A model generated the notes under the pieces. That model was not told the DNA's origin, ran no database searches, and saw nothing but the letters and a program-made list of their open reading frames with translations. A stretch of DNA of 62,846 nucleotides, filler included, from an uncultured bacterium (GTDB lineage Bacteria; AUK180), in the NCBI GenBank assembly GCA_937863565.1. It is 8 parts of 7 records of this genome, joined end to end, with 100 filler letters (N's around TTAATTAATTAA, not from the genome) between each part and the next. Parts side by side here need not be neighbours in the genome. Positions count along the whole stretch, not along the records: positions 8,549 to 30,585 come from CALMGJ010000006.1; 7 more parts are not named here. One strand, 5' to 3'. The position numbers and the translations under genes are program-made. This document shows positions 2,281 to 62,589 of this stretch, one piece after another; the stretch's first letter is position 1, and each line of letters begins with the position of its first letter.

Positions 2281-2562
2281 TGTTCACTGTTCGCTGTTCA
2301 CTTCGTTTCGACCAACTCTCAACTCTGTTCACTGCGCCTCGCCCCCTATCCTCTAGCCTCTAACCTCTATTTGATCGCTCCGCTTTATTATTCAATTAAC
2401 GTGTTTGCAAGAAGCTTGCCTGCGAGTTAACGAGTTTATTTTATATTTTTTATTATTCTAACTTTCAACTCTCAACTCTCAACTCTCAACTCTCTTCACT
2501 ATTCACTGTTCACTGTTCACTTTTCATTTGATCATTTGAGAACGAAGGGTGCTTCGTTCTCA
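2281..2562. repeat. Composite tract of heptamer repeats (TGTTCAC, TCTCAAC, CCTCTAN), one GTTAACGA-hairpin element and an 11-bp hairpin at a contig end
   Basis: ttcaact-ctcaact-ctcaact-ctcaact at ~2464-2491; ttcacta-ttcactg-ttcactg-ttcactt at 2495-2522; TGAGAACGAAG-ggtg-CTTCGTTCTCA at 2537-2562. Confidence 0.85.
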
Positions 2563-27898: not shown

Positions 27899-28240
27899 AT
27901 GAAAAGAAACATAGTATATGAAAAGGCATTTGATTTTGCGCTTAAGGTAATAAAATTATATAAAACAATGATCGAAAAAAATGAATATGTGCTTTCAAAG
28001 CAAGTACTCCGTTCGGCAACAAGCATTGGTGCTAATATAAAAGAGGCTTTAAACGCACAGAGCAGGAAGGATTTTTTATCGAAGATGAATATCGCTTTGA
28101 AAGAATCATCGGAAACGGTTTATTGGCTTGAATTATTATTAGCTTCCGGGTACTTGAAAACTAAGGAACTATTAAATGATTGCGATGAAATAAATAAAAT
28201 GCTGGCAAGCATTGTAAAAAAGGTGAAAAAAACACTTTAA
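27899..28240 (+). CDS. Four helix bundle protein (23S rRNA IVP/TIGR02436-like, Avd-related fold)
   Basis: EKAFDFAL...LSKQVLRSATSIGANIKEA...DFLSKMNIALKESSETVYWLELL. Confidence 0.92.
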   Translation: MKRNIVYEKAFDFALKVIKLYKTMIEKNEYVLSKQVLRSATSIGANIKEALNAQSRKDFLSKMNIALKESSETVYWLELLLASGYLKTKELLNDCDEINKMLASIVKKVKKTL

Positions 28241-28242
28241 AT

Positions 28243-28331
28243 AATTGACAATTGAGAAATGATAATGGAGAATTGAGAATGGAGAATTGAGAATTACAAA
28301 AGTGGCTGGAGGTTGGAGGTTGGAGGATAGG
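28243..28331 (+). repeat. Seven AATKGAG-type heptamers (28243-28291) followed by four GGNT(G/A)GA-type heptamers (28304-28331)
   Basis: aattgac aattgag aaatgat aatggag aattgag aatggag aattgag; ggctgga ggttgga ggttgga ggatagg. Confidence 0.93.
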
Positions 28332-28434
28332 GGGTGAAGAGAATAATAAATGAAGAAAGGTAAAAGAGACTGGAGATTTGAAATATATTATAAAAAGAGA
28401 TATAAATAGCAAAGAAATAATTGGGAGGAGATTT

Positions 28435-28803
28435 ATGAGTATTGAAGATCTGAAAGTTATAGAGGCGATAAATGCTCTTGTAAAGGACATTTATAAAGTG
28501 ACATTGAAATATCCGAAAAATGAGGAATTCGGGCTGATCTCACAAATGAGAAGAGCAGCAATTTCAATCGGGTCTAATCTGATGGAGGGTAATTACAGAG
28601 GTTCCACAAAAGATTATGTGCATTTCATAGATATCGCAAAAGGTTCAGCTGCCGAATTAAAATACCAACTATTGATCTCAAAGGAATTGAAATACATATC
28701 CGAAAAGGAACAGGAAATATTGGATAAGAAAATTGAAGAAATAATAAAGACGCTAAGCAGTATTAAGAGGGCGTTGAAGAAGAAGCTGGAGGATAAAGGA
28801 TAG
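28435..28803 (+). CDS. Four helix bundle protein (23S rRNA IVP-like), second and divergent paralogue
   Basis: EDLKV...IYKVTLKYPKNEEFGLISQMRRAAISIGSNLMEG...FIDIAKGSAAELKYQL; ATG 28435 behind GGGAGGAG. Confidence 0.92.
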   Translation: MSIEDLKVIEAINALVKDIYKVTLKYPKNEEFGLISQMRRAAISIGSNLMEGNYRGSTKDYVHFIDIAKGSAAELKYQLLISKELKYISEKEQEILDKKIEEIIKTLSSIKRALKKKLEDKG

Positions 28804-29291
28804 AGGATGGAGGATAAGGGCGAGACGCAGTGAATAGTGAACAGCAGAGCGGCAGAGCCGCGGTGTGGAGTGTGGAGTACGGAGTGTGGAGTGGGAAAGA
28901 AAGACAATGGAGAAATACAATAGAGGCTGGAGGATGGAGGTTAGAGGATGGGGAAAGAAAAGTGTGGAGCGGGGCAGTGAAGCAATGCAGTGCAGAGTGT
29001 CGAGTACCGAGTGCCGAGTGGGATGAGGATAAATAATCCTACCTTCACTATTGCACTAAGCACTTTGCACTATGCACTAAACAAGCGAAGTGCCGTGTGG
29101 AGCAGAGCGGCAGAGCCGCGGTGTGGAGTGTGGAGTACGGAGTGTGGAGTTAATAATAAAAATACAATTGCTCAGTTATCCGGTTAACGAGTTGGCGGGT
29201 GACCGTCTGCGAGTTAACGAGTTTAAAAAAGTGAATAACGAATAGTGAGAAGTGAATAATGAAAAGTGAGGACTAGGAATGGATAATTGAG
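28784..29291 (+). repeat. Mosaic of short heptamer tracts from at least five families, plus a 50-bp internal duplication and a GTTAACGA-hairpin element
   Basis: GGATRGA (28784-28818, ~28921-28952), GTGAAYA (28830, 29231-29272), GAGTGTG (28861, 29119), GTGCCGA (28990-29017), inverted TGCACTA (29051-29078); 28843-28892 is identical to 29101-29150. Confidence 0.9.
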
Positions 29292-29337
29292 AATTTATGA
29301 ATGCCGGTATTTATTAATACACTATTAACTGAATATA

Positions 29338-29787
29338 TTAAAGGGATTTAAGCAGGGATTCCATTGCTGAAAGAAAATCACCGGCGGCATCAAGTGAATT
29401 TCGCACCTCATCTTCTGTTGAGATATAACTCAGATCGTATTGTCCATGATGGCGCAATTCTCTGTTGTGGTCCAAGATATCCACCCATTTTTGATCGAGT
29501 TTTCCGGTAGAGACATATTTTCTTTCAAGAAACCGGGCAATGCAGGCATGGCTCTTTTCACGATAACCTTCGAAGAACAGCAATGCTCTTCCGGCATGGA
29601 ACATTACCATATATGAAGCATGCAATGAGGAGTTGAACGCCTTTGCGCGTAATGATGCCTCGGCTTCAACGGCCCATTCTTTGGCTTTTTCAATGGATTG
29701 AAAAGCCCTCTCCCGTGAAGGCGGGATCTTTCTCAGCAGATTGAGCCTTAAACATTCCTCGAAATCAAAGGACATCATTCTCTCCAT
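29338..29787 (-). CDS. HEPN domain protein (toxin-like partner of MNT)
   Basis: SYMVMFHAGRALLF, KSHAC and RELRHHGQYD motifs. Confidence 0.85.
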   Translation of the reverse strand: MERMMSFDFEECLRLNLLRKIPPSRERAFQSIEKAKEWAVEAEASLRAKAFNSSLHASYMVMFHAGRALLFFEGYREKSHACIARFLERKYVSTGKLDQKWVDILDHNRELRHHGQYDLSYISTEDEVRNSLDAAGDFLSAMESLLKSL

Positions 29788-30298
29788 AGAGCATAATGGA
29801 ACCGAAAGAGAGGGCGTGATAGAAAAGCGGATCTTCTTTTTTTATTTTTTCAATTTTATCGGCTGTCAGAAGTAAGATCTTCACATTTCTGATCTTCTTT
29901 CTGAGCCGGGCGGACAAAGAAGCCAGATCCGCTTCAGGGGCTTTATTTATATAAAGCCAGATATCTGTGTCGGAACTTTCCGTGTTTTCGCCTTTTGCAC
30001 AACTCCCGAAAAGCCCGGCCGCTCTTATGAACTTATATTTTCCGAAAATAGAAGTATCTATCGAAATAATGTTCAGCATAATCTTCAGTGATCTTGTAAT
30101 ATGGGAATTATTCGCTATGTATTTACTCCGGACCCTTTTCAGCACATTTTTTACGGAAAGGAGTTCTAAATATTTAGATACGAAACTTTTACTTATACCG
30201 AGAGCATTTGCAATGCCGGTTACGCAAAAAGCATCTTCCTTGAATATGACTGCTTGAAGCACCTTTTCCCTTTCCCTGCTTGACAGTATCTCTCTCAT
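29765..30298 (-). CDS. Winged-HTH plus minimal nucleotidyltransferase (MNT) antitoxin
   Basis: N-terminal HTH (IANALGISKSFVSKYL); LFGSCAKGENTESSDTDIW GSx10DxD motif. Confidence 0.88.
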   Translation of the reverse strand: MREILSSREREKVLQAVIFKEDAFCVTGIANALGISKSFVSKYLELLSVKNVLKRVRSKYIANNSHITRSLKIMLNIISIDTSIFGKYKFIRAAGLFGSCAKGENTESSDTDIWLYINKAPEADLASLSARLRKKIRNVKILLLTADKIEKIKKEDPLFYHALSFGSIMLYGENDVL

Positions 30299-30467
30299 CT
30301 GCAGTCCTCCAAAAAAGTTCTCAAATCATGAACAAAATGTTCGCGAATTGTGAATAAAGTGTTCGTGTATTGAATATACGGATGAAATAATGACCCATTA
30401 ATAAATAAATTGCATAACCCGGTATTCATAAGTAATTATAGCATATTCTTAAGGGAAATACAAGAAA

Positions 30468-30585
30468 AATAGAGGATGGAGGTTTGAGGGTGGAGGATGG
30501 GGAAAGAAAAGTATGGAGTGTGGAGTACGAAGTGTGGAGTTAATAATAAAAATACAATTGCTCAGTTATCCGGTTAACGAGTTGG
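30468..30585 (+). repeat. Second copy of the composite repeat block, at a contig end
   Basis: 30511-30585 matches 29121-29195 with 2 mismatches; 30468-30517 resembles ~28919-28969. Confidence 0.9.
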
Positions 30586-30685
30586 NNNNNNNNNNNNNNN
30601 NNNNNNNNNNNNNNNNNNNNNNNNNNNNNTTAATTAATTAANNNNNNNNNNNNNNNNNNNNNNNNNNNNNNNNNNNNNNNNNNNN

Positions 30686-30825
30686 AATGAAGAATGAAAA
30701 ATGAAAGATGAAAAAAAATAAATACAAAAAGAAATAGAGAATCAGAAGAATGAAAAAAACAAGATCAACTCGTTAACTCGAGGACATTCCGATGTCAACT
30801 CGTTAACTGAATAATAAAGCGAAGC
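30686..30825. repeat. AATGAAR heptamers plus an inverted GTTAACGA-hairpin element at a contig start
   Basis: aatgaag aatgaaa aatgaaa gatgaaa; AACTCGTTAAC twice around GACAT-tccg-ATGTC. Confidence 0.85.
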
Positions 30826-30886
30826 GATTAATTTGAATTGATAAGTTCCCATTCAAAGGATGTTTTTAAATATCCCCGATATATCA

Positions 30887-30915
30887 TTGACATAAAACGC
30901 TTTTAAGGGTAAAAT
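30887..30915 (+). promoter_or_regulatory. Sigma70 promoter for the oxidoreductase operon
   Basis: TTGACA-17-TAAAAT. Confidence 0.7.
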
Positions 30916-30946
30916 AACACAATATTATAATGCACGGAGCAATCTC

Positions 30947-31249
30947 ATGAGAATAAAGGAACATCCGATACTCGATTTCCCCGAAAAAAAGAAGATCCCT
31001 TTCTACTGTGACGGCAAACTCCTTTTCGGAAGAGAAGGCGATACCATCGCGGCCGCGCTTCACGACAACGGCATAATGGTCTACCGCATCACCGAGAAGG
31101 AGCGTTCCCGCGGTTTTTTCTGCGCCATCGGCAAATGCTCATCCTGCTTTATGACCGTGAACGGGATACCCAATGTCAAGACCTGCGTAAAACCCCTTAA
31201 AAAGAACATGAAGGTGGAGACCCAGAAGGGCAAGGGGGTGTATAAATGA
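30947..31249 (+). CDS. 2Fe-2S binding subunit (sarcosine oxidase alpha N-terminal/HcnA-like)
   Basis: GDTIAAAL...RGFFCAIGKCSSC...VKTC. Confidence 0.9.
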   Translation: MRIKEHPILDFPEKKKIPFYCDGKLLFGREGDTIAAALHDNGIMVYRITEKERSRGFFCAIGKCSSCFMTVNGIPNVKTCVKPLKKNMKVETQKGKGVYK

Positions 31250-59318: not shown

Positions 59319-59423
59319 GCCCTCGCGGGCCCGGATCCGAAATTTCACCTTTTTCAACCAACGTCCCTCTATACTATTTTTCATTTCTTTGTTATTCTCG
59401 ACCAGATCGGGAATCCAGGGCTT

Positions 59424-59594
59424 GCTTCGCTTTATTATTCAGTTAACGAATTGGCGGTGGACCGCCCGTGAGTTAACGAGTTATTAAAATTATCATTCCT
59501 TATTTAAACCCGTTAACCGGATAACTGAGCAATTGTATTTTTATTATTAACTCCACACTTCGTACTCCACACTCCACACCGCGGCTCTGCCGCT
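59424..59594. repeat. GTTAACGA-hairpin element plus an inverted copy of the 84-bp composite repeat block, at a contig end
   Basis: 59511-59594 is the reverse complement of 29106-29189 with 1 mismatch. Confidence 0.92.
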
Positions 59595-61909: not shown

Positions 61910-62526
61910 TTGCACTTCCCTTTTGTACTATTCCCAATACCTTGAACATCAGTTTGGATAATTTGATTTGTATATTCTCCCCCGACACCAATACCTGAAC
62001 CACTTATATTGATACTAAGACCAGTATCGCTGATATTGACTCCGCCTCCTCTTATTAATCCACTCCCTAATTGTAGATTCATATCTAAGCTTGTCCCCGC
62101 TAATTCATTAACTGAATTAGCTGACGGATTGAAATTAAGAGTGGAGCCGGCAGTTACAGTTGCACCGAGTGCTACGCCTCCACTATTTGATACAGTGACT
62201 CCTACTGTGAACCCACATTCTTTTGAAAATCCGAAGGCAATTCCCACTTCCTGAGAAGCCCCGCCAATGAATCCGAAATCGAATCTAAATCCAATTTTAA
62301 TTGTAAACAATCCCCATTGATCCTTATATATGACCGGATCGTCATCGGCATAGAAATACCTGTTCAACGCATTCACATTATCTTTGCTTATAAAGCGTCC
62401 CACAGAAGGATCCATAACCCTGTATCGGTAGTAGTAATCCCTTGTTTCTATGTTATACTCTCTGCCGGTGTAAAGATAGCGGATCGATGGTTCGGAATCA
62501 AGGCCTTTATATGGCGTGAGTTTCAT
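61906..62526 (-). CDS. RHS orphan module: RHS-associated core plus glycine-rich beta-type tip
   Basis: YLYTGREYNIETRDYYYRYRVMDPSVGRFISKD...DPVIYKDQWGL. Confidence 0.85.
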   Translation of the reverse strand: MKLTPYKGLDSEPSIRYLYTGREYNIETRDYYYRYRVMDPSVGRFISKDNVNALNRYFYADDDPVIYKDQWGLFTIKIGFRFDFGFIGGASQEVGIAFGFSKECGFTVGVTVSNSGGVALGATVTAGSTLNFNPSANSVNELAGTSLDMNLQLGSGLIRGGGVNISDTGLSINISGSGIGVGGEYTNQIIQTDVQGIGNSTKGKCK

Positions 62527-62589
62527 TATTTCCTAACTCGCAGGTAAGCCACTTGCCAACCCGTTAACCCGCAATAAAATAACTGAGCA

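Follow-up and report, generated by a model that had tools for sequence, protein, structure and literature searches.

The stretch of DNA considered here (the window) comprises 62,846 nucleotides, filler included, from the genome of an uncultured bacterium of the AUK180 lineage (GenBank assembly GCA_937863565.1). Small contigs are strung together in it by N44-TTAATTAATTAA-N44 linkers, so that the adjacency of genes across the joints provides no evidence of linkage. Scattered along it is a small dispersed repeat unit, in which the 11-mer GTTAACGAGTT, or a near copy of it, occurs twice in direct orientation, 30-31 bases apart, and encloses a short hairpin of 14-15 nt, the arms of which differ in sequence from copy to copy with retention of pairing. 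By direct reading of the sequence, all five copies listed in the original prediction, which had been made by inspection of this DNA, were found at the places assigned to them, and two partial copies were added, at 30550-30585 (+) and 59507-59540 (-). The copies are individually heterogeneous. The first repeat of copy 1 (ATTAACGTGTT) carries two mismatches with respect to the consensus; the stem of copy 2, the unit under study (GGCGG/CCGTC, within 29183-29223, +), includes one G.T pair; that of copy 3 is GACAT/ATGTC. In copy 5 the stem (GGCAAG/CTTACC) carries one C.A mismatch and the second repeat is degenerate, its place being taken by an AGGA-type ribosome-binding site that immediately precedes the ATG at 62526. 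Five of six copies lie within 260 bases of a contig joint or of an end of the window, and a second half matching the first of the two partial copies was found at the start of contig C16.

The exact 11-mer is found seven times in the window, to be compared with approximately 0.03 occurrences of any one 11-mer expected by chance in 2 x 62.8 kb according to an arithmetic estimate, while the shuffle control, available at up to two mismatches only, is weak (21 matches to the 11-mer versus 12.8 +/- 3.7). The leader CGCTTTATTATTCA, described as common to three copies, is present exactly three times in the window, and GCTCAGTTAT, thought to be shared by two, exactly four times.

The view of the unit as a discrete 55-nt element, on the other hand, was not borne out. 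The 11-mer GTTAACGAGTT corresponds to slightly more than one unit of an 8-base tandem repeat, GTTAACGR, which is also found in hairpin-free runs of two or three units, so that the direct repeats are tandem octamer units and the hairpin forms a cassette of a wider mosaic. Two-unit octamer matches (GTTAACGN pairs) number 21 in this genome, against none for the reversed control pattern. The cassette consists of 19-20 nt between two octamer units (a G, one arm of a stem of 5-6 bp, a loop of 3-4 nt, the other arm and YNCGA), and it occupies the place of the two A's of one octamer unit. The same GTTAAC core is enriched outside genes, with 106 sites in 0.17 Mb of non-coding DNA versus 107 in 2.1 Mb of coding DNA. 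Avoidance of GTTAAC as a consequence of HpaI-type restriction was also considered, but the number of coding sites equals the Markov expectation (107 versus 111) and is uninformative in this respect.

The mosaic organization emerges from comparison of the paralogous loci. In five of them a composite of 130-200 nt could be aligned (alignment A2), with the order leader A, octamer, cassette or cassettes, octamer, conserved AT-rich spacer, inverted octamers and second leader; the layout of the right arm of copy 4 is common to all five. What varies between the composites is the type of hairpin, the presence of an optional extra module and the number of octamers. Cassettes sometimes occur in tandem, as in contig C30 (104759-104846, three hairpins) and contig C3 (219-291), and the three or four cassette types recur in different flanking contexts. 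Four paralogous segments that share the same left and right flanks (alignment A3) contain no cassette (C17), one (copy 1 and its near-twin on C19) or two (C30), which indicates that a cassette plus one 11-mer behaves as a single block in gain or loss. Palindromic units and other short motifs are thus combined in variable order and number, as in the mosaics of the type of the bacterial interspersed mosaic elements (BIMEs).

Every copy is in turn embedded in arrays of tandem heptamers, as detected with Tandem Repeats Finder. Genome-wide, 143 such period-7 arrays lie in the approximately 7% of the DNA that is intergenic versus 51 in coding DNA. As a separate observation, the purine-rich strand of the heptamer arrays in tandem gaps of the genome is the sense strand in 38 cases versus 13, a polarity that could reflect a transcription- or replication-linked asymmetry.

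The proposal that pairing is kept while the stem sequence varies was supported by a larger set of units. A search for pairs of near-copies of the 11-mer, separated by 12-30 bases, identified 20 places in the 2.27 Mb genome, 13 of which have an interior of 19-20 bases; the other seven, with 17 or 26-30 bases, are other combinations of modules. These 13 units and copy 5 were aligned with MAFFT (alignment A1, 14 units, 13 of them distinct), having been chosen by their flanking repeats and not by pairing. In the inner helix 88.7% of the cells are paired, versus 27-40% when the partners are slid by one to three columns; five of the six pairs are changed on both sides, and in none of 500 shuffles was the observed covariation score or the number of doubly changed cells equalled. 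RNAalifold, on its own, predicted the same two helices, of which the outer one (GTTAAC:GTTAAC) is an invariant palindrome and is uninformative on covariation. The hairpin has conserved flanks, with GAGTT 5' of it and YNCGAGTT 3' of it. Folded as single strands, the best copies form a three-tier hairpin made of the GTTAAC:GTTAAC stem, an internal loop and the variable inner stem, and for seven of 13 units the fold of the single-stranded DNA is clearly better than that of shuffles (z <= -2), the other six being decayed. The G.T and A.C cells of the inner helix are balanced (four and three, respectively) and give no indication of which strand, if any, folds.

The hairpins fall into three or four types, each present in several copies: GGCGG/CCGCC, GRCAAG/CTTGYC, GACAT/ATGTC and a GC-rich fourth one. 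Thus, a small number of independent compensatory events lies behind the covariation counts, and a few founder hairpin types copied around the genome, or correction templated by the palindrome itself, would equally give conserved pairing. Of the earlier suggestion of selection on the structure of single-stranded DNA or RNA, the conservation of pairing stands, whereas selection as its sole explanation does not, and six of 13 copies are decayed. More generally, the covariation of a few paralogous copies of a repeat should not count as evidence for an RNA gene.

A covariance model, the test that had been advocated at the outset, was built from the 14 units and scanned over the whole genome, where it established that the element is multi-copy, with 45 matches at E<=1 and 37 at E<=0.01. 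By our own count, on the basis of length, a hairpin is present in 26 of the 37, and the remaining 11 consist of octamers only. Every one of the 37 is intergenic, with approximately 93% of the genome being coding according to crude gene calls (longest open reading frames, greedy choice). They are scattered across at least 15 contigs on both strands, and with either strand orientation relative to the neighbouring genes. Of the 28 gaps that bear the element, 13 are tandem, 7 convergent and 1 divergent, and 7 lie at contig ends, to be compared with 194, 63, 91 and 30, respectively, for background gaps of at least 150 nt. The rarity in divergent and the excess in convergent gaps agree with reports on other intergenic repeats (PMC4692102), and their simplest explanation is tolerance, with insertions in promoter regions being selected against. 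The octamer motif lies within 300 nt of 10 of the 76 contig ends versus approximately 0.9 expected, an excess indicating that the repeat family breaks assembly and that the true copy number is above the count.

Outside this genome the unit as a whole was essentially not found. The covariance model gave no matches in 40 related genomes (six of the same family, two of the same class and 32 more distant), and no GTTAACGN octamer pairs were detected in the six family genomes. The nearest genomes are distant, with approximately 52% protein identity in a conserved GTPase; in three of the family genomes, heptamer arrays of similar units occupy the intergenic gaps around the gene of this GTPase. With heptamers present in these relatives and the GTTAAC module absent from the six family genomes, the heptamer style is the older one, and the GTTAAC/hairpin module a genus-specific addition. 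The exact composite pattern had no match in species-representative genomes or in metagenome contigs, a slightly degenerate version (R at three positions) none in viral contigs, and a blastn search with 59400-59594 none among phages or plasmids, by taking into account that public collections may omit the records of the window's own genome. A looser pattern matched at least 120 and at least 119 loci in two scans of public collections. Reading of 200 of these loci gave 314 matches, 268 of which have an octamer-like interior and are plain tandem arrays; among the 314 matches listed, only two have both an interior that is not octamer-like and a hairpin of 4 bp or more, and the octamer arrays come from Prevotella, Bacteroidaceae, Cloacimonas, Saprospiraceae, candidate-phyla-radiation bacteria and others. 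Thus, GTTAACGN arrays occur widely but patchily, whereas the repeat-hairpin-repeat unit is practically confined to this genome.

Some of the external loci deserve mention in their own right. In five of them (L049, L067, L070, L084 and L233), from candidate-phyla-radiation, Gammaproteobacteria and Bdellovibrionales assemblies and one metagenome contig, two direct GTTAACGAGTT-type units 16-17 bases apart, with the linker NGCGA and no hairpin, are followed by a short AT-rich spacer and two inverted units, AACCCGTTAAC and GCGTTAAC, a layout that recurs across phyla and resembles the present composite minus the hairpin. Other small hairpins between GTTAACGN units were observed in unrelated assemblies: in L097 and L217 they are ACACT/AGTGT versus ACCCT/AGGGT, with a 12-base loop, and L187 and L214 contain an ACGGC-NTA-GCCGT hairpin. 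The nesting of hairpins in octamer arrays of unrelated assemblies may therefore be a general pattern. In the literature, none of the 15 best-ranked of 904 papers containing GTTAACGAGTT, GTTAACGGGTT, GTTAACGG or GTTAACGA deals with bacterial repeats, and only a few of the 15 include either 11-mer (GTTAACGAGTT or GTTAACGGGTT).

Table 1. Coordinates of the repeat copies and of other features, in the window unless a contig is named.
Feature	Position	Strand	Details
Copy 1	2381-2436	+	leader A 2381-2394; first repeat 2395-2405; second repeat 2426-2436
Copy 1, hairpin stem GCAAG/CTTGC	2407-2411/2415-2419	+	fold z -1.49
Copy 2 (unit under study)	29160-29223	+	leader B 29160-29182; repeats 29183-29193 and 29213-29223
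Copy 2, hairpin	29194-29207	+	linker TGCGA 29208-29212; three-tier fold, z -2.27
Partial copy	30550-30585	+	leader B, first repeat, GG; cut at contig joint (N run from 30586)
Copy 3	30767-30821	-	leader A 30808-30821; repeats 30797-30807 and 30767-30777; hairpin in between; z -2.21
Copy 4	59428-59482	+	leader A 59428-59441; repeats 59442-59452 (1 mismatch) and 59472-59482
Copy 4, hairpin, stem GGCGG/CCGCC	59453-59466	+	fold z -2.86
Right arm of copy 4 mosaic	59483-59540	-	AT-rich spacer 59483-59506; inverted octamer 59507-59517; inverted leader B 59518-59540
Copy 5 (decayed)	62527-62588	-	leader 62579-62588; repeat 62558-62568; hairpin 62543-62557; z -0.37
Heptamer array run leading into copy 2	28243-29150		units such as AATTGAG, GTGTGGA, GAGGATG
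Similar heptamer arrays	2281-2369, 2460-2526, 29227-29270, 30472-30540, 30686-30715, 59550-59579		Tandem Repeats Finder
N runs	start 2578, 8449, 30586, 46627, 54482, 58012, 59595		
PF05635 genes	27899-28240 and 28378-28803; C16 10080-10490; C37 86404-86718	+ (window)	
HEPN + MNT-type nucleotidyltransferase pair	29338-30298	-	
Open frame of 3433 codons	8788-19089	+	
GGGACGTTGGTTGA repeat family	59354-59369; C29 77335-78271; C30 61590-62537	- (window)	approximately 20 further sites

The genes next to the element are of two kinds. Among the accessory ones are two 23S-rRNA-IVP four-helix proteins, a HEPN and nucleotidyltransferase pair, and Fic; the housekeeping ones include the end of a V-type ATPase operon, a TGS-domain GTPase and oxidoreductases. 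All four genes of the genome that encode 23S-rRNA-intervening-sequence proteins (PF05635, four-helix bundle, bAvd-like) are flanked on both sides by repeat-mosaic gaps, which suggests that such small genes move together with the mosaics or become established in them. The HEPN and MNT-type nucleotidyltransferase toxin-antitoxin pair lies between co-oriented heptamer/leader B/repeat modules (29120-29223 and 30500-30585), and the segment may be duplicated or recombined. Most of the part of contig C6 included in the window is occupied by a single open frame.

By taking into account these observations, the unit is best described as a module of a lineage-specific intergenic repeat mosaic, that is to say a DNA-level, selfish or neutral repeat of the kind of BIMEs, of short tandemly repeated repetitive (STRR) sequences and of small dispersed repeats, rather than an RNA gene or a site-specific recombination site. 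We assign to this description a probability of approximately 55%. The variation of cassette copy number between paralogues is directly seen; as to the direction and process of change, a cassette with one 11-mer would be gained or lost by slippage, or by unequal recombination between the flanking direct repeats. Recombination or gene conversion between intergenic copies would duplicate whole mosaics and rearrange them, as suggested by the shuffling of modules and by the presence of near-identical copies on different contigs (C1 and C19; the end of C6 and the start of C16). Pairing would be kept mainly because the palindromic cassettes are copied whole from few founders. Extrusion of the hairpin on single-stranded DNA may be part of the copying, a possibility compatible with the stable three-tier folding of the best copies, and the palindrome may template its own repair and so preserve pairing.

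Several points weigh against this description. No mechanism of spread was observed, and the nearest genomes are too far to catch gain or loss. The gap classes are approximate, the gene calls being crude, and the near-absence from divergent gaps, which contain promoters only, would also fit a role at the 3' end of genes. Furthermore, the stable three-tier folds of seven of 13 units, along with covariation above all controls, could reflect a selected function.

An alternative that we regard as possible, although rather unlikely, is that the 19-20 nt cassette is itself a tiny mobile element, which would be recognized by its shape and would insert into GTTAACGR units, with an 11-base target duplication, by means of an enzyme not yet linked to it. 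If so, it would be among the smallest structure-defined mobile DNAs and would explain the hairpins found inside 7-8 base arrays in several phyla. In the 14 units of alignment A1, inspected by eye only, no clear co-variation of the 5' and 3' repeat variants, which could have pointed to target duplication on insertion, was seen. The ends of the composite, octamers included, are imperfectly inverted, a feature that bears on the comparison with miniature inverted-repeat transposable elements, and no parent transposon was found in a search that covered only the Y1 and tyrosine recombinase families.

The idea of a repetitive extragenic palindromic (REP) sequence, or of a REPIN (a pair of inverted REPs), moved as single-stranded DNA by one of the REP-associated tyrosine transposases (RAYTs) is less likely. 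According to it, the hairpin, together with a motif in its flank, would be recognized by one of three RAYT-like Y1 (HUH) transposases. In favour of it, the unit is extragenic, short and imperfectly palindromic, its flanks are conserved, as is the structure of its stem, and the genome contains three Y1_Tnp genes, the best NCBIfam match of which is the REP-associated tyrosine transposase model. Their scores (65, 70 and 51 bits), however, are under the model cut-off of 80. The proteins, of 283 amino acids, are extended at the C-terminus by a helix-turn-helix. A repeat of the RAYT family is found 59 bases from copy 4, but no GTTAACGNGTT (GTTAAC) motif occurs within 1.5 kb of any of the three genes: two are bracketed by inverted copies of another repeat, with the core GGGACGTTGGTTGA, and the third, on contig C13, by yet another inverted repeat. 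The GGGACGTTGGTTGA core, with 20 matches in the genome at up to one mismatch, often as inverted pairs 110-200 bases apart, is followed by either AAAAGGTGAAATTT or CATTGTTGACAA. RAYT-like genes and this repeat are present in all seven family genomes, the GTTAAC element in one of them. The GGGACGTTGGTTGA repeat and the Y1 genes thus look like a family-wide system of the RAYT/REPIN type, with RAYT scores below the NCBIfam cut-off, and, because the RAYT-like system has a cognate repeat of its own, its presence is no predictor of the GTTAAC element.

In classical REPs a conserved GTAG or GTAG-like tetranucleotide stands next to the palindrome; no such conserved 5' tetranucleotide is present here, and RAYT genes do not flank the copies, while the short extragenic palindrome and the multiple copies (37 of 37 intergenic, in modest number) are shared with REPs and REPINs. 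A RAYT link as the primary explanation was rejected on the grounds of the lack of the motif near the genes and of their different, family-wide cognate repeat. The check for a linked RAYT or integrase gene therefore turned out negative, RAYT-like genes being flanked by different repeats and an integron integrase being absent from the genome. The two parts of the original label, 'REP-like or recombination-site-like', fared differently: the element is REP-like in being intergenic, palindromic, multi-copy, mosaic and genome-specific, while the recombination-site part is largely refuted.

About as improbable is a functional element of transcripts, either a 3'-end hairpin that stabilizes the mRNA or aids termination, or a regulatory hairpin of the 5' untranslated region. 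When gaps at contig ends are set aside, 20 of the other 21 are downstream of one or both neighbouring genes; many copies have a stable hairpin, and copy 5 stands immediately before a start codon. In tandem gaps, however, antisense copies are about as many as sense ones, many copies are decayed, and the lack of matches in the 40 related genomes is joined by the outcome of the Rfam searches, with no match at gathering score on the window and none at E<=1 on 20 element loci (6000 bases), which agrees with the initial impression that no described family could be recognized. No T-run follows the hairpin, and a terminator scan of 28700-31000 returned two sites, neither within the element. An intrinsic terminator, in particular, was rejected, because the stem is followed by YNCGAGTTAAC without a T-run.

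Even less probable is an array of sites for a DNA-binding protein, nucleoid-associated or regulatory, that recognizes the palindromic GTTAAC core, the hairpin region acting as a spacer. The concentration of GTTAAC in non-coding DNA, the recurrence of GTTAACGN arrays across many phyla and the few external loci (L049, L067, L070, L084 and L233) with two direct and two inverted units round a short AT-rich spacer are in its favour; against it, the 8-bp period is out of helical phase, a mere spacer would need no conserved pairing, no candidate protein was identified, and the absence of the repeats from the six family genomes implies no conserved pair of regulator and site.

That the unit is an attC-like recombination site, belonging to a cassette system of the integron type or to another one based on a tyrosine recombinase, is largely refuted and hardly tenable: although the unit, once folded, shows outer and inner stems separated by an unpaired spacer, with GTT at its base, and two co-oriented copies bracket the HEPN and nucleotidyltransferase pair (29338-30298), no integron integrase is present (best TIGR02249 score 81 bits versus a cut-off of 265, among four tyrosine recombinases, two of XerC/D size), copies lie on both strands, on many contigs and among housekeeping genes such as the V-ATPase operon and the GTPase, the unit of 36-41 nt is shorter than attC sites (approximately 57-141 nt, with R''/R' boxes and a GTTRRRY core), and GTTAACG misfits that core at two of four degenerate positions.

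If the unit is a module of a repeat mosaic, as favoured here, it provides a tidy example of how the intergenic DNA of a little-known lineage is built from nested micro-repeats, namely heptamers, octamers and hairpin cassettes. Such mosaics break assembly and could serve as strain markers. A genome with a few dozen well-defined copies could also be convenient for studying how mosaics are built and spread, given sister strains or population reads.

With respect to known systems, attC sites are recognized by structure rather than sequence, and the present unit resembles them as a folded single strand with two stems round an unpaired spacer, but differs from them in the lack of IntI, in the mixed orientation, in being too short and in the misfit of the core. 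The small dispersed repeats of Nostoc punctiforme, reportedly described by Elhai et al. in 2008 (Genome Res 18:1484), are said to be 21-27 nt long, in some cases hairpin-forming, and to occur in conserved flanking contexts and inside tandem heptamer repeats, with mobility inferred and no known enzyme; compared with that description, the present unit belongs to another phylum, has another sequence and is hosted by an octamer. BIMEs of E. coli are built from REP palindromes. BIMEs and the REPINs of Pseudomonas (Bertels and Rainey 2011, PMC3116915) share with the present mosaics the combination of short imperfect extragenic palindromes, of several subtypes, with other short motifs in variable order, and the occurrence of dozens of intergenic copies, especially downstream of genes. 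The present repeats differ from them in having no sequence similarity to them, in numbering tens rather than hundreds of copies, in lacking a flanking RAYT, the local RAYT-like genes owning another repeat, and in the nesting of the palindrome in an octamer tandem repeat amid heptamer arrays.

Among STRR and heptamer repeats, those of Xanthomonas (GGGNATC) and Nostoc are intergenic and under-represented between divergent genes (PMC4692102), and TAACTGA heptamers form direct repeats in Beggiatoaceae (PMC4679880). The present arrays are like those of cyanobacteria, Xanthomonas and Beggiatoaceae in being dense intergenic arrays of 7-8 bases, patchy across phyla and rare between divergent genes, although those repeats are tandem arrays, whereas the unit described here is a hairpin cassette between two array units. 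Thus, the sequence family is new and lineage-specific, while the kind of repeat to which it belongs is known.

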